Positions 54,209 to 64,000 of a stretch of DNA of 64,000 nt are shown in pieces (position 1 is the first letter of the stretch; every line of letters begins with the position of its first letter). Made by a program: the position numbers and the translations under genes. The DNA is from Candidatus Thorarchaeota archaeon. Its GTDB lineage: Archaea; Asgardarchaeota; Thorarchaeia; Thorarchaeales; Thorarchaeaceae. The notes under the pieces were generated by a model. The model did not search any database. It saw only the letters and a list, made by a program, of their open reading frames with translations, and was not told the DNA's origin. The stretch spans positions 1,043,713 through 1,107,712 of the forward strand of contig CP070761.1 in assembly GCA_020348985.1 (NCBI GenBank). The letters run 5' to 3'.

Positions 54209-54820
54209 GTGCCATTTACGCTGTTCCACTATGTGTTTGCATGGGCAGTTGCCAAGTTGGACAGGAGATTCTCGCTTCCCGCGCTTTTTGTGGGCTCAGT
54301 AATGCCAGACGTGGAGGTTCCAATCATAAGACTGTTCTTTAGTGAAGTGGTGCCAGATCACTATGTGCTTCATAGCTTAATACAGACATTGACTTTAGGC
54401 CTCCTCCTATCTGTACTGGTAGTAAGATTCCTTTATCCACCGGTGATTTCGAGGCTGTTTGGTGTAGATCGATGTGCTCTGGATGAAAGCTGCAGTGTAG
54501 CACCTGCTTTGATTCTCTCATGCGCAATTGGCTTGGCTGGGCACTTGATTCTAGATTACCCAATGCACTACTACAACCACATTTTCTGGCCTTTTGTTGA
54601 CCCGAACATCTTGGTGGGCCCACTGGTAGCAATATTCGCTATCGAGAATGATCTGGACCTGGGATACATCAGAGCGAATGTAGCAATGAACACGGTCATG
54701 ATTCTCCTTTTTACACTGGTTTTGCTGAAGATTAGAGGTCCGGGATTCTGGGAAAGATTCTGGTTAGGAGAATCAGAGATGAAAGAAGGAGCACTTGCTA
54801 ATCAATCTACGATGGAATGA
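54209..54820 (+). CDS. DUF4184-like membrane protein (metal-dependent hydrolase-like)
   Basis: MPFTLFH, GSVMPD, HS, HLILD..MH motifs. Confidence 0.75.
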   Translation: MPFTLFHYVFAWAVAKLDRRFSLPALFVGSVMPDVEVPIIRLFFSEVVPDHYVLHSLIQTLTLGLLLSVLVVRFLYPPVISRLFGVDRCALDESCSVAPALILSCAIGLAGHLILDYPMHYYNHIFWPFVDPNILVGPLVAIFAIENDLDLGYIRANVAMNTVMILLFTLVLLKIRGPGFWERFWLGESEMKEGALANQSTME

Positions 54821-55739
54821 ACCACTCTTCCAGAGAGACCTGTGACTGCGTGTCCAAGACCGCTTCGTTTTCGTAGAGCTTGCGAATGAAGTCATTGTAG
54901 GAGCTTACACTCTCGACTCGAACGTTGGCAAACAAACCATAGTCGTCACTTACTCGATGAAGATCCCACACTTGTTCCATCTGACTGATCTTCTTAGCAG
55001 CATTGGCTATACTTCCTGGCCTTGGACGAATCTGAAGAAAGAACTTGATGGGAAGACCAACGCACCCATAGTCGATGTCTAGCGAGTATCCTGCAATCGC
55101 GCCTCTGGACTCCAATCTAGTCATTGCCTTTGAGACCGCAGGTTGGCTGATTTGTGGCTTCATTGCCTTTCCAATGTCCTCTTGGGAGGGAGCAAAGGGT
55201 TTCTCCTCCGATGGAGTTCGTCGACGAAGGACATTTAGTAAATTCCAGTCTTTCTCGGTTAGTGATGGGGAGGAGTTGCTAGATTTCCTGACAATGAATC
55301 CGTTTGTTTTGTAAGTGGTAAGGACCTGTACAAGGTTGTAGGTCTGAGCTCCAGACTTCGCGACAACCCTGTCGACGTTGTCCAGAAACCTTTCGAACGC
55401 CATTGGCGAACGGAAACGAAACAGACCAAGAAGTGAATACTCACCTGAGATTCCATCGAGTGAGTGGAGCTCTGGCATGTCGATTAGCGCTTCACTAAGT
55501 CCGAGCTCTCGTGGGTTTGTCTTGACTAGGAGGATCGTGTTCCTCTCAGCATACACCTGCAGCGGATCAAGGATTGCTGTGTACGACCTGATGACGTCCA
55601 GTTTGACTAGCTTCTTCACTGTGCGGGCCACCCAGTTGCGACCCTTCTTCGCTTGTTGCCCCAGTGTGACATGACTCGCTCTGGAGTTCTTCAAAAGCAG
55701 GCCGACCAGTGTTCTTTCACTTTCTGTAATGTCTTGCAT
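54807..55739 (-). CDS. Tandem Lrp/AsnC transcriptional regulator
   Basis: Two HTH+RAM repeats (LLKNSRAS...ISGEYSL; ISQPAVSK..LESRGAIAGY...VSDDYGL); divergent from ahcY. Confidence 0.82.
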   Translation of the reverse strand: MQDITESERTLVGLLLKNSRASHVTLGQQAKKGRNWVARTVKKLVKLDVIRSYTAILDPLQVYAERNTILLVKTNPRELGLSEALIDMPELHSLDGISGEYSLLGLFRFRSPMAFERFLDNVDRVVAKSGAQTYNLVQVLTTYKTNGFIVRKSSNSSPSLTEKDWNLLNVLRRRTPSEEKPFAPSQEDIGKAMKPQISQPAVSKAMTRLESRGAIAGYSLDIDYGCVGLPIKFFLQIRPRPGSIANAAKKISQMEQVWDLHRVSDDYGLFANVRVESVSSYNDFIRKLYENEAVLDTQSQVSLEEWFIPS

Positions 55740-55826
55740 CCCTCTCGGGTTCATCAGTGCATTCCATTCCACAATCTGATGTAGGATTCATATAAATCCT
55801 CACACCGGAGCGAATCGTGATAAACA

Positions 55827-57086
55827 ATGACTGACTATAAAGTCAAAGACATAGGATTGGCCGAAGAGGGCCGAAAGCTAATCGATTATGCCGAAAAGCA
55901 CATGCCTGTGTTGATGCATCTTAGGAAGAAATACGCCGAGACGAAACCGCTCAAGGGAATGAAGATCGCTGGATGTCTTCACGTCACAAAAGAGACTGCA
56001 GTTCTAGTGGAAACTCTGCGAGATGTTGGTGCCGAGGTGGCCTGGTCTGGCTGTAACCCGTTGTCAACGAATGACCATGTAGCTGCCGGACTTGCAGCAA
56101 ATGATGTCCCAGTCTTTGCTTGGCACAATCTGAATACAGAGGACTACTATTGGTGTATCGAGCAGACTCTGAAGACTGAGCCAACGCTCACTCTTGATGA
56201 CGGAGCAGATCTAATCTTCACGCTGCACAACAAACACCAGGAGCTGATTCCGAATCTCTACGGAGGCTCTGAGGAGACCACAACTGGCGTGATTCGAGTT
56301 CGAGCAATGGCCGATGATGGAGCACTGAAGTATCCAATCATGGCTGTGAATGATGCTGCAACCAAGCACCTGTTCGACAATGTGTACGGCACTGGACAGA
56401 GTGTATTTGATGGTGTAATGAGAGCATCAGCCATTTTGATAGCTGGAAAGACTGTTGTAATTGGCGGCTATGGATTCTGTGGACGCGGGATGGCTGAACG
56501 CGCAAGAGGCTTGGGAGCTAATGTAATCGTTACAGAGGTTGATCCCGTTCGCGGATTGCAGGCGAGAATGGACGGCTTCAGAGTAATGAAAATGAGTGAA
56601 GCAGCTCCAGAAGGAGACCTGTTCCTTACTGCAACCGGCATGAAGGATGTCATTACAGGCGAACACATGAAGGTCATGAAGGACGGTGCTATGTTTGGCA
56701 ATGCTGGTCACTACAATGTGGAAATCAATGAACCTGATTTGATTGAACTCAGCAAAGGTCCAAAGAAGAGGGTGCGTCATGCACTGGATGAGTACGAGCT
56801 TAAGGATGGACGACGACTCTATTTGCTGGGCGAAGGTCGATTGGTTAATCTGACCGCGGCGGAGGGACACCCAAGTGAAGTCATGGACCTATCCTTCGCA
56901 GGCCAACTGAATGCCATGATTTGGATGGCCAAGACTGGCAAGGATCTGGAACCGGCAGTATACGAATTCCCAAAGGAACTTGACATGCAGACTGCTCAGG
57001 CAAAGCTCGAAACCATGGGCATCAAAATCGACAAGTGGACTCCCCAACAAGAAGCCTATGCAAAGGCCTACGCTGAAGGAACATAG
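55827..57086 (+). CDS. ahcY: S-adenosylhomocysteine hydrolase
   Basis: GCLHVT, CNPLST, DDGADL, EETTTG, KHLFDNVYGTGQS, EGRLVNL..AEGHPSEVMD.SF. Confidence 0.97.
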   Translation: MTDYKVKDIGLAEEGRKLIDYAEKHMPVLMHLRKKYAETKPLKGMKIAGCLHVTKETAVLVETLRDVGAEVAWSGCNPLSTNDHVAAGLAANDVPVFAWHNLNTEDYYWCIEQTLKTEPTLTLDDGADLIFTLHNKHQELIPNLYGGSEETTTGVIRVRAMADDGALKYPIMAVNDAATKHLFDNVYGTGQSVFDGVMRASAILIAGKTVVIGGYGFCGRGMAERARGLGANVIVTEVDPVRGLQARMDGFRVMKMSEAAPEGDLFLTATGMKDVITGEHMKVMKDGAMFGNAGHYNVEINEPDLIELSKGPKKRVRHALDEYELKDGRRLYLLGEGRLVNLTAAEGHPSEVMDLSFAGQLNAMIWMAKTGKDLEPAVYEFPKELDMQTAQAKLETMGIKIDKWTPQQEAYAKAYAEGT

Positions 57087-57189: not shown

Positions 57190-58641
57190 TTGAGAGAGAT
57201 GGCATTCGGCTCTTCAGAGAAACTGTCTCGGAAGAACATGTGGGGTTATGCATTTGGAGCAATCCCTACCGGACTTCTGGGCTTCGTTTTCACCTTCAAG
57301 TACATCGAGTTCTTCTTTGACGATCTGGCCTTGCTGCCAGCATACTTCGTCGTTGGACAGATCATTTACATGACAGTGAACTCCCTTAATGACCCGCTAT
57401 CGGGACAGCTTTCAGACCGCACTGACCGAGAGCGATGGGGAAGCAGGCGATTAATCTACATCAAATACGGTGGCCCAGTGTGGGCGCTCACCTTCATGCT
57501 AGTCTGGATTCCTTGGAGCCTCACTGACCAACTTGTCATCTTCATCCACTATGTGATAACGATTTGCGCATTTGACACAATGTACACACTAGTGATTCTT
57601 CTCTGGTTGGCATTGCTTCCTGAAATGACGATGGACATTGATGAACGAAACAAGGCCCAGTTCTTCGCGACCGTCTTGGGTACAGTTGTGGTCCTGCCGG
57701 CGTTTCTCATTATCGCAAATATCAGTCCCAATTCCGACGAGTTTCGGATGATCATGTTGGTCTTTGCAGTAATATCGACATTCTTCCTCTTTCTGACCGC
57801 CAGCATGTGTGAAGAGCGACCTGAGTTTCAGAGCGATGAAGTATACTCACTGAAAGAATCAATTCTGGCCACGTTCAGGTCCAATTCATTTCTTGTCTAC
57901 GCAGGCTTCTACTTCGCCCAGAATCTGCTCGGTAGCCTAGGGCTCAGCTATTTCTTCATCTACATAATGTTGCTAGAAGTGATATCTCCTGGGTTGAACA
58001 TCATTCTCCTGTTCTTCATAATCTACTTCATTGTAGGATATGGAGGGAACATCATAGCAATGCGGCTACGGCCAAGATGGGGCATGAGGGGAGTCATCTT
58101 GAAGTTTGGAGTAGTCCGGGTAATAGCGTCTCTTGCACTGTTCTTCATAATCTTGGTACCTTCATTGGAATGGGTGATCTGGTACGGACTCATTCTGACA
58201 ACTTTGGCTTCAGGGTATGGCATCTTCCACATACCAATGCAATACTTGGCAATAGACGAGGATGAGGTCTTACATGGTTCTAGAAGAGAAGGAATGTTCA
58301 TCGGAGTTATGGCGTTGTTGACGCGGCCGGGAACAAGCCTAGGACCCATAATAGCCACCTTCGTTCTAGCTACATTGGGATATATCCAGGGCGGTGGTGT
58401 AGAAGCACAACCGGCTTCGGCTTTCCTTGGAATCAAGATTCTGTGGCTTCTCGTCCCAGCACTAGTTGCCGCGTTAAGTCTCGTCTTCATATACTACTAT
58501 CCACTTCATGGTGAGCGTTTAGCAGAGATGCAAGAAAAGCTAAAAGAACTTCACAAGAAGAAGAGGACTGCCTTTCTGTCTGCAAAGGAAATCGCAACCG
58601 AGCTTGCAGAGAATACGGATGGGCCTCAAATGGAGGATTAG
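57190..58641 (+). CDS. GPH (MelB-like) MFS sugar/glycoside:cation symporter
   Basis: NSLNDPLSGQLSDRT..RWGSRR, ALLPEMT...ERN, IDEDE..GSRREG.F.G, YPL. Confidence 0.9.
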   Translation: MREMAFGSSEKLSRKNMWGYAFGAIPTGLLGFVFTFKYIEFFFDDLALLPAYFVVGQIIYMTVNSLNDPLSGQLSDRTDRERWGSRRLIYIKYGGPVWALTFMLVWIPWSLTDQLVIFIHYVITICAFDTMYTLVILLWLALLPEMTMDIDERNKAQFFATVLGTVVVLPAFLIIANISPNSDEFRMIMLVFAVISTFFLFLTASMCEERPEFQSDEVYSLKESILATFRSNSFLVYAGFYFAQNLLGSLGLSYFFIYIMLLEVISPGLNIILLFFIIYFIVGYGGNIIAMRLRPRWGMRGVILKFGVVRVIASLALFFIILVPSLEWVIWYGLILTTLASGYGIFHIPMQYLAIDEDEVLHGSRREGMFIGVMALLTRPGTSLGPIIATFVLATLGYIQGGGVEAQPASAFLGIKILWLLVPALVAALSLVFIYYYPLHGERLAEMQEKLKELHKKKRTAFLSAKEIATELAENTDGPQMED

Positions 58642-59804
58642 TTGGGAACGTCTATGGGATAGTTGCCATACTTTTCACGGATTCTCATGACAGCCTCCCA
58701 TCTGTCGATGGCAATTGTAGGAATGATGCTGTGACCGCTACTGAAAATGTATCCTCCACCTGGTGCAAGTTCTCGGATTAGCTTCTTACTATATGTTTCA
58801 ATCTCTTGGATTGTGCCTGTGGCCAGCATAACTGGACTGATGTTACCAACGAAAGTGATTTTGTCACCATACTTCTCATGGAGCTTGAAGATGTCATATT
58901 CAGGGTTGGCTGTCGTGGGCTCGATGGGGTTCAATGCATCGATTCCACAGTTCACTATATCCTCAAAGATTAGTGATAGATCCCCATCAGAGTGAAGAAG
59001 AATCTTGGAGCCATGTTTGTGTGCCTCATCACAGATACGTTTTAGCCAAGGAAAGATGTAGGTGTGATAGTTTCGAGGACTCATGAATAGTCCATTCTTG
59101 AAGCCATAGTCATCCCAGATTAGAATAAGCTCGGCACCGTTCTCCCCAAGGATCTTCACCAATTCAAGTGCAAGATTCCCTTTGTCATCAAAGACTTTCT
59201 TTGCTTGCTTGGGTTTTGCTAAGATGCGTGAGAATACTTCGATTCCAAAAGGTTCCCAAGCTGGCTCGAACATCCCGCCAATGGCAGGCACGGATAAGAT
59301 TTCGTTGTTCATCTGTTCTTGGACTTGCTTTCCAGCCAGAAAAGCGGCAAGTCGCCTCTTCTCATGAGGGCTTGGTTGCTTCCATTTCTCGTAATCTTCA
59401 AAGCTCTTGAAGTGGCCTCCACGATAACCCAGAATCACTGTGCCATCCTCGTAGGAGTCAACCTTCATGACCCTCCCGAACTCATCTATGTAACCACCTG
59501 GGATGCCCTTCCGGTACGTATGGGTCACATAGCTGAGCGCAATGTCAATCTTCACGCGCCTTAGGAGCTCATATCCATCTACTAGCACTTTGACCAGCCA
59601 CTTCTGACTCGAGAACGCCAAGTTTGCAAGCCGATCCCTGCCCGGTAGACGTTTGATAGAATCATATCCATCCTTAAGTCCAGTACCTGGTTCGACCCCA
59701 TAATGCCTCATGATTGTGTTGTTTGTGAAAGCACTCTCAAAGGCAGGTACCCGGTCAGATTCTTCATGATTAAGTGCTTTCAGAACGCGTGTCGGAGCAT
59801 CCAT
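58638..59804 (-). CDS. UROD/MtaA-fold corrinoid-dependent methyltransferase-like protein
   Basis: RVLKALNHEESDRVP, IDEFGR, WDDYG..NGLFMSP, LHSDG, LNPIEP, GGGYIFSSGHSI. Confidence 0.85.
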   Translation of the reverse strand: MDAPTRVLKALNHEESDRVPAFESAFTNNTIMRHYGVEPGTGLKDGYDSIKRLPGRDRLANLAFSSQKWLVKVLVDGYELLRRVKIDIALSYVTHTYRKGIPGGYIDEFGRVMKVDSYEDGTVILGYRGGHFKSFEDYEKWKQPSPHEKRRLAAFLAGKQVQEQMNNEILSVPAIGGMFEPAWEPFGIEVFSRILAKPKQAKKVFDDKGNLALELVKILGENGAELILIWDDYGFKNGLFMSPRNYHTYIFPWLKRICDEAHKHGSKILLHSDGDLSLIFEDIVNCGIDALNPIEPTTANPEYDIFKLHEKYGDKITFVGNISPVMLATGTIQEIETYSKKLIRELAPGGGYIFSSGHSIIPTIAIDRWEAVMRIREKYGNYPIDVPN

Positions 59805-59809
59805 CGTGG

Positions 59810-60439
59810 CTATCCCTCCAGAAGTGCTCGGATTCTCCTGACTCCTTCGATTGCGTCTGCTCCGAAGTCATCCGCCCCCAGTTCCTTGGCCAGTTCCATG
59901 TTGAGTGGGGCTCCCCCTACGATTATCTTCACTCCGTCACGAAGTCCTGCTTCTTTGAGAGCTTGATCAACAACAGAAATCTCCCTCAACGTCATTGTTA
60001 GCAGGCAGCTCAGTGCAACTACCCTGGCACCGGCCTCTCGCACGGTCTCTACAATCTTTTCGGAGGGACAGTCCATTCCAAGGTCAATGATTTCCAGACC
60101 AGATGACAAGAGCATAGTGATGAGCAGATTCTTACCGATGTCATGATTGTCGCCCCTAACAGTAGCAACAACAATCCTATCCTTCACTTCCGACTCATCC
60201 GATTTCAGGTGGGGTTCAAGGACTGCAAGAGCATCCTTCACTGTCTCGCCCGCTAAGACCAGCTCAGCAAGGAAGTACTCAGATGACTCGTAACGACGTC
60301 CAACTTCGTCGAGACCGCTTGTCAATGCATTGAGAATCGCTCCGGGGGCAGCTCCTGCGTCAAGTTCTGCCTTCACTGCTTCACCTATGTTGTCAATATC
60401 GAGTTCAATCATCTTTCTACTGATGTCTTCGAGAGTCAC
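59810..60439 (-). CDS. Methyltransferase cognate corrinoid protein (MtbC/MttC-like)
   Basis: Cap domain L..GLDEVGRRYE..EYFL.EL, DxHxxG motif GDNHDIGKN, SCL, IVGGAPL; start re-called to GTG 60439. Confidence 0.92.
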   Translation of the reverse strand: MTLEDISRKMIELDIDNIGEAVKAELDAGAAPGAILNALTSGLDEVGRRYESSEYFLAELVLAGETVKDALAVLEPHLKSDESEVKDRIVVATVRGDNHDIGKNLLITMLLSSGLEIIDLGMDCPSEKIVETVREAGARVVALSCLLTMTLREISVVDQALKEAGLRDGVKIIVGGAPLNMELAKELGADDFGADAIEGVRRIRALLEG

Positions 60440-60585
60440 CTTCTCTCCTCCTAGAACCATTTCCGCGGAGTTCACTCTGCTGGCAGGACAATTGGGAAAC
60501 AGTGTAATATTACTTCCTTCACCTAGTCAACTCGAAGAAGATTAATCGCAGATTGTCTCTGGAATTGGGAAGGGAGAATGCACAG

Positions 60586-63324
60586 ATGCCTGAGAAACCG
60601 TTTGGTTCTGGATATTTCGGCGAATGGATAGGAGATGAGTTTGGACTGCCGGCCTACCGCTATACATGTGATCAGGTACGAGACTCGAAAGCGGCTACTC
60701 AGGTCAACGAGGAATGGAGGCCAAGCACCGATCACCTTCACCAAGTTGGAAATGACAGGTTTGTGGCAGTCGCTTCGAACTACGGACATGTGCAGCTAAG
60801 ACAGGACGAAGGTAGTCCGAAGTTTCTGAACGACTACGATCCTGCACGATCTCAGTTTGGAGGCGGCATTGGGTACTTAACAGATGGAGAAGTAGTGGTT
60901 AGCACCTTCTATAACGACCAAGTTGAATCATTCGACCGTGTTTTTGGAATCGGATACTTCAGAAAAACTGTCAAAGCACATGGACTCGTCGTTGATCAGA
61001 TTGTCTTTGCCCCTTTTGGCGACGACCCACTTGTGATATCACAGGTCACGATTAAGAATGAACGGAGCCAAAGCGTGGACCTCAAATGGGTTGAGTATTG
61101 GGGATGTCAGCTCTATCAGTTTTCATTTAGATCCTTCATAATGTCGTTTGCCCAAGACAAGTCAACATCTGAGATCCGAAGAGAGTTTAGCCGTAGGTTT
61201 GATCACAAGTTTGAGCTTTTTGCCAACTGCAGGGGCCTCATAAACTCAAAACGTTTCAAGGGGCGAACTTTGTCTGATAGGGCAACCTGGAAAGGAGTGA
61301 ATGCATACCTTGCTACAAAAGGAAAGCATCTTACTGGAGGTCCTGTAAAACCACCAATCAAAGAAACTGTCTTGGAAGACGAGTCGCCTCCAACTACATT
61401 TCTTGTCTCGCTCGACGCTCCAGCTATAGGTGTGAGTACAAATGCTATCGAATTCTTCGGGGCCGGCGGGGTGGAGTCCCCTGATCGGATAAAGGAGACT
61501 CTGCCGCTCGAGATTACGAGTCACAAATCCGAAACCGGGATGTTTTTGCAGCGTGGAATGAGTCTAGGACCCGGAGAAGAAAAGACCATCTACTTCGCCT
61601 ACGGGTACTTGCCTGAGAGTTATGAGCTGGAATCACTAGTCACCAAGTACGAGCAAAATCTTGTCAACTTGCTGGCAGAATCGTGCAACAGATGGAAGAG
61701 GAGTAGAATTCACCTTCTTATTGATGGTGAGGACTGGGTTGAGCGTGAACTAGCATGGCACAGCTATTACCTTAGAAGCAATCTCACGTTTGATGCATTC
61801 TTCAATGAACACATATTGTCTCAGGGCCATTTGTATCAATATCTCATTGGAATCCAGGCGGCCGCCAGGGATCCACTCCAGCACGCCCTACCGTTTGTCT
61901 TCACGGACCCTGACATAGTGAAGAACATTATTCGCTATACACTGAAGACAGTTAGTCCAGAGGGAGAAATCCCGTACGGAATTGTTGGTAGCGGTTTGTA
62001 TATGCCCTCACCTTGGAAGCCTAGCGATCAGCAGCTATGGCTCTTCTGGTTAGTAAGTGAATATGTGCTTGCCAATCGAGATACTGACTTTCTTGATGAG
62101 ATCCTTCCCACATATCCAATATACGGACGAAAAGCAGGTAAAGCGTCCGTTCGAGAACTACTCACACGTTGTTTTCGGTATTTTGTAGACAAGATAGGAA
62201 CTGGCAAGCATGGACTCATGCGGCTAGCAAGGGGCGACTGGAATGACGTGGTTGTAATCGGACACGTAAAGGATGAGCAGCGAGACGAGGTCGCAGAGGT
62301 AGGAGAGAGCATCTTGAACTCCAGCATGGCTACCTATGTGCTAGATCACTATTCCCGACTCCTTGGATTCGTTGGTGATGACCTGCTGGCCAAGGAGTCC
62401 CTGGAGTTTGCTGATGGCCAACGTGATGCGGTAACCAAGCAGTGGACAGGAAACTGGTTTAGACGTGCTTGGCTTGGCAGCGAAATTGGCTGGGTAGGTA
62501 CTGATATCATGTGGCTGGAACCACAACCCTGGTCAATAATCGGCAATGCGGCGGATGATGAACAAAAAGGGACTCTATTGCAGGTCATTGGTGAAAAGGC
62601 TCAGCGTTTCTCAAAGCATGGCGCCACGATTCTCTCAACTCCTCTAGATCAGGTGCCAGGAGGTCCAGGGGTTGGTACAAACGCAGGAGTCTGGCCCTCA
62701 ATAAATGGCACACTTGTCTGGGCATTGGCCCTAATGGATGGCTCTAAGGCATGGGAAGAGTGGAAGAGAAACACACTAGCATTTCATGCAGATAGCTATC
62801 CTGAAGTTTGGTACGGAATATGGAGTGGGCCTGATACATACAACTCGGAGTTCTCAGATTCTCCAGGTCAGACAATCCAGATTGGTGAGAGAACTGGAGT
62901 AAGAGACGCTGCAGAGGACAGCGGCCTGGAAGACGAAGGATTCCTAGGTGTGGGTTGGACCGATTTCCCTGTATTCAATATGCACCCACATGCGTGGCCC
63001 CTGTATACGACAGCTAAGATGCTCGGAATCGAGTTCAACATCGAAGGCCTTGAAATCTCTCCGTCCCTGCCACACCAAAAATACGAATTCAATTCACCGC
63101 TCTTGGATTTCGAGAAATCTGAAACAGGGTATAAGGGGAAATATGCGCCAATGGTCCGAGGAACTTGGAAAGTTGTCATCAACCTCGGAGAAGAAGAGAC
63201 TGGACGGCTCTCCACAGCAGTTGTCAATGGGATGGAGCAGGAAATCATAAAGGAAGAAGACCGGGTGATCATCACCGGAACGAGTGCACCAGAAGAACCG
63301 CTCACATGGGAGCTAAAATACTGA
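60586..63324 (+). CDS. GH94-like glycoside phosphorylase/hydrolase ((alpha/alpha)6 barrel)
   Basis: AARDPLQ, SDQQLWL, G.GKHGL...GDWND...GES, WTGNWFRRAW, WLEPQPW, NAGVW, typical of the cellobiose phosphorylase fold; no signal peptide. Confidence 0.8.
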   Translation: MPEKPFGSGYFGEWIGDEFGLPAYRYTCDQVRDSKAATQVNEEWRPSTDHLHQVGNDRFVAVASNYGHVQLRQDEGSPKFLNDYDPARSQFGGGIGYLTDGEVVVSTFYNDQVESFDRVFGIGYFRKTVKAHGLVVDQIVFAPFGDDPLVISQVTIKNERSQSVDLKWVEYWGCQLYQFSFRSFIMSFAQDKSTSEIRREFSRRFDHKFELFANCRGLINSKRFKGRTLSDRATWKGVNAYLATKGKHLTGGPVKPPIKETVLEDESPPTTFLVSLDAPAIGVSTNAIEFFGAGGVESPDRIKETLPLEITSHKSETGMFLQRGMSLGPGEEKTIYFAYGYLPESYELESLVTKYEQNLVNLLAESCNRWKRSRIHLLIDGEDWVERELAWHSYYLRSNLTFDAFFNEHILSQGHLYQYLIGIQAAARDPLQHALPFVFTDPDIVKNIIRYTLKTVSPEGEIPYGIVGSGLYMPSPWKPSDQQLWLFWLVSEYVLANRDTDFLDEILPTYPIYGRKAGKASVRELLTRCFRYFVDKIGTGKHGLMRLARGDWNDVVVIGHVKDEQRDEVAEVGESILNSSMATYVLDHYSRLLGFVGDDLLAKESLEFADGQRDAVTKQWTGNWFRRAWLGSEIGWVGTDIMWLEPQPWSIIGNAADDEQKGTLLQVIGEKAQRFSKHGATILSTPLDQVPGGPGVGTNAGVWPSINGTLVWALALMDGSKAWEEWKRNTLAFHADSYPEVWYGIWSGPDTYNSEFSDSPGQTIQIGERTGVRDAAEDSGLEDEGFLGVGWTDFPVFNMHPHAWPLYTTAKMLGIEFNIEGLEISPSLPHQKYEFNSPLLDFEKSETGYKGKYAPMVRGTWKVVINLGEEETGRLSTAVVNGMEQEIIKEEDRVIITGTSAPEEPLTWELKY

Positions 63325-63332
63325 ATCGCGGG

Positions 63333-64000
63333 ATGAAAATGGACTCTCGGGAGTTGACTCTCACAGCCATCGAAGGAATCCCCGATAGAGTTCCATTCAA
63401 TCCGTTCATAATGCATCTTGCCGCTGCTGTCGATGGAATTGACTACTCAAATGTATACTGCAAGAATGCCGCTGTTCTTGCCGAAGCTCAGATGAGATTC
63501 GCAGACAGCTTTGGGATTGACCACGTTCATGTGTCAACTGATGCCTATAGGGAGGCAAGTGCTTGGGGAGTTGAAGTGGATTTCTCCGGCCATACACCAG
63601 TGCCCAAGAAACATCTCACCATGGATGACTTTGACTCAGTAGAAGAGCCGGATCTGAATTCTGCTATTCGCATTCAGAATCGAATCGAAGCCGTTCGGTT
63701 GCTAAGTGGGAAAGTAGGATCCAAGCAATGTGTCGTCGGCTGGATCGAGGCCCCATTCGCCGAGATTTGCTGCCTTTTTGGCTTGATGGAGGTCCTGAAG
63801 ATGGCACGATACGAGGATTGGAATGAACGAGTGTCCAGTCTGATTTCTCGCATTATGTCAATTCAGAATGAGTTCGCTGAAATGCAGATTGAGGCAGGTG
63901 CCGATGTCATTGGCGCTGGTGATTCCGCGGTCTCTCAGATTGGACCAAAGCGATTCGAAGAAGCGTGTCTCGAATCGACACAAGGATTGTTCTCTGAGAT
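63333..64000 (+). CDS. MtaA/CmuA (UROD-fold) methylcobalamin methyltransferase (3' end outside window)
   Basis: Not in the ORF track. Manual translation gives MKMDSRELTLTAIEGIPDRVPFNP...DAYREASAWG...GWIEAPFAE...QIEAGADVIGAGDSAVSQIGP. Confidence 0.85.
   Translation, partial: MKMDSRELTLTAIEGIPDRVPFNPFIMHLAAAVDGIDYSNVYCKNAAVLAEAQMRFADSFGIDHVHVSTDAYREASAWGVEVDFSGHTPVPKKHLTMDDFDSVEEPDLNSAIRIQNRIEAVRLLSGKVGSKQCVVGWIEAPFAEICCLFGLMEVLKMARYEDWNERVSSLISRIMSIQNEFAEMQIEAGADVIGAGDSAVSQIGPKRFEEACLESTQGLFSE

Follow-up and report, generated by a model that had tools for sequence, protein, structure and literature searches.

Among the described systems that pass methyl groups through a corrinoid, the closest to the locus reported here are the three-component O-demethylases, represented by MtoABCD of Methermicoccus shengliensis and Archaeoglobus fulgidus, MtvABC of Moorella and the Odm and Vdm enzymes of Acetobacterium dehalogenans, together with the related chloromethane system CdmBCA. 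They combine a substrate:corrinoid methyltransferase (MT1) of the UroD superfamily, a corrinoid protein with the motif DxHxxG, a second methyltransferase and an activator of the RACo/RamA type. The survey of the UroD superfamily in the CdmB paper contains many clades whose substrate is unknown (PMC13222342), and the sole demethylation described for a sugar follows an O2-dependent P450 route (PMC6292453). Here we describe a cluster of six genes in a 64,000-nucleotide stretch of Candidatus Thorarchaeota DNA (the window, C1:1043713-1107712 of a closed 3.16-Mb genome), where a divergent relative of the GH94 disaccharide phosphorylases, hereafter GH94L, is tied to UROD-fold methyltransferase-like proteins, a corrinoid protein and a symporter. 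The homologues closest to the encoded proteins bear the names of Thorarchaeota and other Asgard lineages. We tentatively read this cluster as a module for the breakdown of methylated glycosides.

A conserved cluster around a GH94-like enzyme

Open reading frame (ORF) calls together with Pfam and NCBIfam models define the six genes, the last of which extend beyond the window end. In window positions, they are arranged as follows:

57199..58641, + strand: GPH/MFS_2 symporter (the ORF opens with TTG at 57190; likely start ATG at 57199)
58638..59804, - strand: UROD1, a protein of the MtaA/UroD superfamily (PF01208, E 2e-28)
59810..60475, - strand: corrinoid protein of the MtaC/MtbC type (PF02607 and PF02310; probable start ATG at 60460)
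60476..60585: divergent spacer of 110 bp separating both transcription units (alignment of seven orthologous spacers)
60504-60511: AT-rich box GTAATATT within the spacer, conserved in seven orthologous loci
60540-60546: AT-rich box GATTAAT within the spacer, conserved in seven orthologous loci
60586..63324, + strand: GH94L, a divergent GH94-like enzyme of 912 aa, cytoplasmic (PF17167, E 1e-23; PF06165, E 5e-8)
63333..64000, + strand: UROD2, an MtaA-like protein cut by the window end and running to 64388 (PF01208, E 6e-45)
64385-65557 in window-equivalent numbering (L002:8098-9270), outside the window: UROD3, a third UROD-fold paralog (PF01208, E 2e-16)

A first-pass annotation, made from the letters of the window, had placed a GPH symporter, a corrinoid protein with DxHxxG, UROD-fold genes and a GH94-like gene here, and all of them are present where it put them. 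Its 8-nt spacing between the GH94-like gene and the second MtaA-like gene is exact (the UROD2 ATG at 63333 follows the GH94L stop by 8 nt), and the motifs that it saw in the GH94-like protein occur as ARDPLQ, RGDWND and VGES. The two MtaA-fold enzymes that it named do exist, but the total is three; UROD3, which overlaps UROD2 by 4 nt, lies beyond the window. On the other side of the spacer, the corrinoid gene stands upstream of UROD1 with a gap of 5 nt, and the two are likely co-transcribed, while UROD1 and the symporter gene are convergent and overlap by 4 nt. The boxes GTAATATT and GATTAAT look like archaeal TATA elements for both divergent units and may act as promoters. Downstream of UROD3 come msrA and then unrelated genes.

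Metagenome contigs and further Thorarchaeota-type genomes from the same family retain the cluster with identities of 58-84%, and other Asgard groups have these genes in a changed arrangement. A Helarchaeota-named contig carries them as UROD2, UROD1, corrinoid protein / GH94L, UROD3, and other rearranged versions are found in a Hodarchaeales-named contig, in closed Atabeyarchaeia-named genomes (family f13), in families f12 and f28 and in several genera of family f9. At least five Asgard lineages have a directly adjacent corrinoid gene. When independent loci of the GH94L ortholog clade were counted (at least 44% identity, n=49, neighbours within 6 kb), a UROD gene was found near GH94L in 30/49 and a gene for a sulfatase-fold protein in 15/49, as opposed to a UROD gene in 0/13 loci of a paralog clade that is 29-32% identical to GH94L. 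The linkage of GH94L with UROD genes is not due to chance, and the GH94-like, UROD, corrinoid and GPH genes, which the first-pass annotation had grouped as one locus and which might have proved unlinked in relatives, form a conserved unit.

Co-occurrence points the same way. In one sample of 301 Asgard genomes, a GH94L ortholog is present in 58 and a UROD3 ortholog in 60, with both in 52 genomes, GH94L only in 6, UROD3 only in 8 and neither in 235. Both genes are patchy inside families f1 and f9, yet they are still co-distributed there (both, GH94L only, UROD3 only and neither: 14, 1, 2 and 60 genomes in f1; 31, 4, 5 and 28 in f9). The corresponding Fisher values of 1e-42 for the whole sample, 2e-12 and 9e-10 are overstated, as related genomes do not count as independent cases. 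In genus g24, the UROD1/2/3 trio lies on a different contig from GH94L, with uninformative flanks around the trio, and the tie is therefore one of functional co-occurrence and not of synteny alone.

The association also reaches bacteria. Two bacterial proteins (P0114 and P0118) are GH94L-UROD-SCP2 fusions, and on an Anaerolineales contig GH94L is accompanied by three UROD genes, of which one is fused to SCP2. In the tree, the bacterial GH94L proteins, including those from Acidobacteriota and Anaerolineales and the fused form (L004, L006, L058, L063), nest inside the Asgard clade, which suggests that GH94L has been transferred between Asgard archaea and bacteria.

Two further genes lie upstream of the symporter in the window, an Lrp/AsnC-type regulator that is much extended at its N-terminus (54807-55772, - strand) and, between this and the symporter, an S-adenosylhomocysteine hydrolase (55827-57086, + strand). 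Neither seems to be a member of the conserved unit, because the hydrolase of L038 lies about 3 kb from the symporter.

The proteins of the cluster and their relatives

A profile of GH94L, built from 66 relatives, matches cellobiose, chitobiose and cellobionic acid phosphorylases over most of its length, with E values down to 1e-56, and also the GH94 domain of cyclic beta-1,2-glucan synthase. The architecture comprises an N-terminal supersandwich domain followed by an (alpha/alpha)6 barrel; both Pfam models score above their cut-offs, and the NCBIfam models gave no match. The 33 leading fold matches of the AlphaFold2 model (predicted local distance difference test, pLDDT, 94.4; predicted template-modelling score, pTM, 0.95) are all GH94 structures, the best with template-modelling (TM) scores of 0.66-0.75 at 16% identity.

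Catalytic, -1 subsite and phosphate-ligand residues have been listed for the cellobiose phosphorylase of Cellvibrio gilvus (PMC5501786). In an alignment by hidden Markov models, the catalytic general acid Asp490 of this enzyme, in its DWND motif, corresponds to D554 of GH94L, and Trp488, Arg367 and Asp368 of the -1 subsite correspond to W552, R428 and D429; Asn660 is also retained. The phosphate ligands Arg351, His666, Thr731 and Gly732 fall instead on F406, S705, M799 and H800, in an alignment with indels near R351 and T731. By sequence, GH94L belongs to the GH94 fold and superfamily with a nucleophile site that appears remodelled. This comparison does not back the phosphorylase activity that the first-pass annotation had attributed to it: because GH94L has other residues in place of all four canonical phosphate ligands, the name "phosphorylase" is unproven and lacks support at the sequence level. 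The conserved R397, H800 and H802 could serve as substitute phosphate ligands.

GH94L shares with the disaccharide phosphorylases of GH94 the fold, the catalytic residues just listed, a cytoplasmic location and a place beside a sugar importer. It differs from them in the low identity (about 16%), in the replaced phosphate ligands and in residues of the clade's own, namely the invariant E388, D750 and R627 and the motif NMHPHAW, within which M799 and H800 sit. With 471 clusters at 50% identity (E < 1e-30), this GH94-derived clade is large and uncharacterised.

The three UROD proteins exceed the cut-off of PF01208, in keeping with a UroD-type TIM barrel and the MtaA fold, and they differ from one another at the zinc positions of MtaA. 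On the His/Cys/Cys zinc ligands of MtaA (4ay7), UROD1 aligns H271, D273 and H358; in a joint alignment, UROD2 has H232, C234 and C322, the classical MtaA zinc set, and UROD3 has H279, C281 and H366, so that UROD2 is the only one of the three with the His/Cys/Cys site. Among solved relatives, the MT1 enzyme CdmB and MtaA come closest to UROD1, each with E ~2e-6. A profile search with UROD3 found no match among solved sequences, and a look-up in the ESM Atlas returned generic URO-D clusters only; its AlphaFold2 model (pLDDT 95.6) has MtaA 4ay8 as the best Foldseek match, with TM scores of 0.65/0.74. From these residues and relatives, UROD1 is a candidate MT1 and UROD2 a candidate methylcobamide:acceptor methyltransferase (MT2). 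Together, the paralogs add to the MtaA/UroD superfamily several new branches in which the metal ligands are unusual.

An identity as HemE, the enzyme of heme synthesis, was considered for the UROD proteins and rejected, since their scores with TIGR01464 (33 bits for UROD1, 75 for UROD2, no hit for UROD3) are far under the cut-off of 303 bits and their ligand residues stand at the MtaA zinc positions. In summary, the MtaA/CmuA models were judged to match the paralogs at least as well as HemE.

The corrinoid protein joins a B12-binding_2 cap to a Rossmann B12-binding domain, and its motifs GDNHDIG (DxHxxG), SCLL (SxL) and VGGAP (GG) form the full base-off/His-on set, invariant in 11 orthologs. 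It scores 151 bits against a cut-off of 350 for MtbC and 148 against 215 for TIGR02370, and its sequence fits a broad kind of corrinoid protein cognate to methyltransferases, with no named subfamily. A paralog that is 59-69% identical occurs in nearly all f9 genomes (62/68) and in many f1 genomes, where it stands alone (L103-L120 in family f1; L100-L102 in genus g43); in G113, its neighbours are IscS/NifU-like and ABC genes. Because no methyltransferase gene adjoins it, this orphan paralog is uninformative, either way, on whether a corrinoid protein could be supplied in trans.

The activator is encoded outside the cluster. The first-pass annotation had suggested looking beyond the window for a RamA/RACE protein, and a protein of the RamA/RACo type (PF14574 RACo_C_ter, 267 bits) is indeed encoded elsewhere in the genome, at C1:1568067. 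It belongs to a region (C1:1568067-1572385) that also holds one of the four MtrH genes of this genome and a corrinoid protein. A second MtrH-corrinoid pair lies at 471721-472991, and both sets count as additional modules for methyl transfer through corrinoids, of the type found outside methanogens.

Seen against the corrinoid O-demethylases, the present locus has comparable components: candidate MT1 proteins of the UroD superfamily, a DxHxxG corrinoid protein and a putative MT2 lie side by side, with the RACo/RamA-type activator elsewhere in the genome. The candidate MT2 resembles MtaA, as does its counterpart in Mto, and is not a pterin-binding barrel. Unlike those systems, the UROD proteins match CdmB or MtaA at only E ~1e-6, or no solved sequence at all in the case of UROD3; there are three paralogs with three ligand sets; the activator is outside the cluster; and the whole is tied, in bacteria even by fusion, to a GH94-like enzyme, with an MFS_2 importer and, in relatives, sulfatases. 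With MtaA and MtbA (4ay7, 4ay8) and their partners MtaC and MtbC, the cluster shares the fold, the His/Cys/Cys triad of UROD2 and the cap plus Rossmann architecture of the corrinoid protein. It departs from them in low scores (29-70 bits against 235 for TIGR01463), in the exchange of Cys ligands for Asp or His in UROD1 and UROD3, and in having no MtaB or MttB-type partner in the cluster.

The symporter, finally, matches PF13347 (E 4e-42) over residues 19-439 (421 residues) and scores 109 bits with TIGR00792 (gph), under the cut-off of 231 bits. Its orthologs, at 67-81% identity, hold the same position in L038, L039, L042, L043, L059 and L113.

A proposed route and its alternatives

From the observed gene content, folds, motifs, linkage, co-occurrence and fusions, we infer a route that is conditional in every catalytic step, as well as in the roles of the paralogs, the substrate and the methyl acceptor. 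The module would carry out the cytoplasmic breakdown of an imported O-methylated glycoside together with its corrinoid-mediated demethylation, the methyl group most likely being on the sugar; we give this reading a probability of roughly 0.4. In a first step, the GPH/MFS_2 symporter would import the compound. GH94L would then split the glycosidic bond by the inverting mechanism of GH94, with D554 as the general acid and either phosphate or water as the nucleophile. As substrate-specific MT1, UROD1 (His/Asp/His) and/or UROD3 (His/Cys/His) would polarise the ether oxygen at their metal site, so that Co(I) of the corrinoid protein could take the methyl group, much as zinc activates methanol in MtaB. 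UROD2 (His/Cys/Cys) would take the methyl group off CH3-Co(III) and load it onto a carrier, either a thiol or a pterin, from which it would enter one-carbon metabolism, and the RamA-type activator, encoded about 460 kb away, would re-reduce Co(II). Because an aliphatic methyl ether chemically resembles methanol, the altered metal sites of the UROD proteins are compatible with such a demethylation, although they are no proof of it.

The glycoside part of this reading draws on the neighbours of GH94L in relatives. The cluster of genus g43 consists of MFS_2, a sulfatase, GH94L and a UROD protein of a fourth type (the UROD_L050-type partner), which has the motif HCCGK but lacks an evident third ligand. 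The sulfatase in it has the canonical formylglycine motif CMPNR (Cys type) and lies 46-122 nt from GH94L, an adjacency because of which a decorated glycoside is indicated. Contig L122 holds, in order, MFS_2, a sulfatase, MFS_2, UROD3, GH94L, UROD1, a free-standing SCP2 and UROD2. In the tree, GH94L proteins linked to UROD genes are interspersed with those linked to sulfatases, which favours a single type of GH94L enzyme serving loci that differ in their decoration-removing accessory genes, and a decorated glycoside as the substrate. In some relatives, this substrate is probably sulfated as well.

The assumption that every such neighbour is a true sulfatase was rejected on account of nine loci in genera g24 and g39 (L053-L057, L045, L046, L076, L080) where Thr replaces the formylglycine Cys/Ser, in the motifs TIPVR or TIQVR. 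Some of these Thr-type loci also hold two Gfo/Idh/MocA oxidoreductases, and in four of them (L053, L054, L057, L076) the sulfatase-fold protein is found near a radical-SAM/SPASM protein of the anSME-like kind, which would have no obvious Cys/Ser to modify. In our own genome, outside the window, a 127-aa C-terminal UROD-fold fragment at C1:408691-409101 (L121:10689-11072, minus strand), 34% identical to UROD1, is flanked by two sulfatase-fold genes, one of them of the Thr type (TMPNR), and it may be what is left of a further pairing of UROD with a sulfatase. As a separate observation, a gene for a GH67-like alpha-glucuronidase lies about 7 kb from the GH94L-UROD cluster of a Helarchaeota-named contig (L062:19950-20733), a single case that may be a coincidence; the GH67-like family frees 4-O-methyl-glucuronate from xylan.

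Several points weigh against the demethylation of a methylated sugar. We know of no characterised corrinoid methyltransferase that acts on an aliphatic sugar methyl ether, and within the UroD superfamily the substrates of known MT1 enzymes are aryl methyl ethers or haloalkanes (PMC13222342). The UROD proteins stay far under the TIGR01463 (MtaA/CmuA) cut-off of 235.4 bits, with 62.8 bits for UROD1, 69.5 for UROD2 and 29.4 for UROD3, and the phosphate ligands of GH94L are replaced. A corrinoid gene is linked to GH94L within 6 kb in only about a quarter of the loci (12-13/49), several loci with UROD and GH94L having none within 8-9 kb, and a Pfam scan found no sugar kinase, isomerase or extracellular glycanase in the cluster. 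SCP2, fused or free, occurs in three corrinoid-less versions of the GH94L-UROD locus (L058, L063, L122) and suggests a hydrophobic ligand. None was seen in the loci that have a corrinoid gene, so that SCP2 and the corrinoid gene may be complementary in distribution, on the basis of three cases in all. That the sugar carries the methyl group is a conjecture, the sulfatases pointing to a decorated glycoside and SCP2 to a hydrophobic ligand.

This last point leads to the alternative that survives best, though we consider it unlikely: the substrate would be a glycoside, possibly sulfated, with an aglycone that is a methoxylated aromatic or is hydrophobic in some other way (such as a flavonoid or one derived from lignin), from which GH94L removes the sugar while the UROD and corrinoid proteins act as a classical aryl O-demethylase. 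GPH carriers transport aryl glycosides too, the SCP2 of the bacterial and L122 versions would fit such a ligand, and the Cys-type sulfatases could be aryl-sulfatases. The best solved relative of UROD1 is the MT1 CdmB, and the characterised O-demethylating MT1 enzymes of the superfamily (MtvB, OdmB, VdmB and MtoB) all take aryl methyl ethers (PMC13222342). However, the UROD proteins are distant from these characterised enzymes, and the clusters examined contain no genes of aromatic-ring catabolism. Moreover, the neighbouring sulfatases have an SGSH_C module, some of them accompanied by the two Gfo/Idh/MocA oxidoreductases, which are of the sugar type, and the known GH94 enzymes, judging by the names of the matched molecules, cleave sugar-sugar bonds and not aryl glycosides.

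A somewhat less probable explanation is that the UROD proteins do not O-demethylate the substrate or products of GH94L at all, and that they carry out methyl-thio, methyl-seleno or methanol-type one-carbon chemistry, or chemistry without a methyl group, in a different pathway that they and GH94L share. In organisms other than methanogens, clusters of MtaA-like genes have been connected with the metabolism of methyl-sulfur compounds and methyl-selenides (PMC10418091), many GH94L-UROD loci are without a corrinoid gene, and the HCCGK partner, in which a third ligand is not evident, would fit other chemistry. On the other hand, that same source mentions no glycoside enzymes (PMC10418091), while the fusions, the tight translational coupling (the 8-nt gap and the 4-nt overlap) and the 52/58 co-occurrence argue for a single pathway, and the adjacent corrinoid gene in the lineages counted above speaks against this explanation as well.

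Salvage of an amphiphilic glycolipid is very unlikely. A lysolipid-type MFS_2 carrier would import a glycolipid or alkyl glycoside, GH94L would remove the head-group sugar and SCP2 would hold the lipid tail; PF13347 includes lysolipid carriers as well, SCP2 is fused to UROD or free in the three versions mentioned, and the GH94L of g24 has the lipid genes GGR, PcrB and UbiA on its other side (L057) in addition to a Thr-type sulfatase-fold hydrolase. Yet these lipid genes may be mere neighbours in g24, they are absent from the present cluster and from most linked loci, and three methyltransferase paralogs and a corrinoid protein would be left without a role. Most improbable of all is a biosynthetic use, in which GH94L would work backwards and form a beta-glycoside, to be methylated by the UROD and corrinoid proteins, for although GH94 phosphorylases are reversible and corrinoid-protein methyl transfer can be reversed in vitro (shuttle catalysis), the cluster has an importer-type symporter, its relatives have sulfatase neighbours, known sugar methylation uses S-adenosylmethionine and the phosphate site for reverse phosphorolysis is not conserved.

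Possible anoxic demethylation of sugars

For the preferred reading, the breakdown of an imported, O-methylated glycoside, the nearest precedent in purpose is the P450 6-O-methyl-D-galactose demethylase of marine porphyran-degrading bacteria, which likewise removes a methyl ether blocking sugar catabolism and is encoded among genes for glycan degradation and sulfatases (PMC6292453). That enzyme differs in being O2-dependent and oxidative, in releasing formaldehyde and in belonging to an unrelated family, whereas the system described here would operate under anoxic conditions and retain the methyl group on a carrier. The literature on Asgard methyltransferases reads MtaA/CmuA genes as signs of methanol or methylamine use, or treats MttB and MtrH systems, and our search of the literature on GH94 with UroD, on corrinoid demethylation of methyl-sugars and on Asgard O-demethylases found no description of the GH94-UROD pairing. 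In this, it agrees with the first-pass annotation, to which no characterised archaeal pathway of this kind was known. The parts are of known kinds; what is new is how they are combined, together with the remodelling of the GH94 site and the variant ligands.

In its broadest form, which we hold to be possible but doubtful, the proposal is that the UROD paralogs would be the first enzymes to remove methyl ethers from sugars independently of O2, by a metal-assisted Co(I) attack on an aliphatic O-methyl group of the sugar, coupled to a new, GH94-derived and glycoside-cleaving clade with a remodelled nucleophile site, and with the methyl group kept for one-carbon metabolism. This would amount to a widespread route, in Asgard archaea and bacteria, for the use of marine and soil glycans that are methylated and, in some lineages, sulfated.

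Sugar methyl ethers block the normal breakdown of glycans, and the anoxic sediments and soils where Asgard archaea live contain methylated and sulfated glycans, whose breakdown there is unexplained. If our reading is true, the module is a concrete and testable candidate for the missing step of anoxic sugar demethylation, and it would link the use of sugars to methyl-group metabolism in the closest archaeal relatives of eukaryotes.

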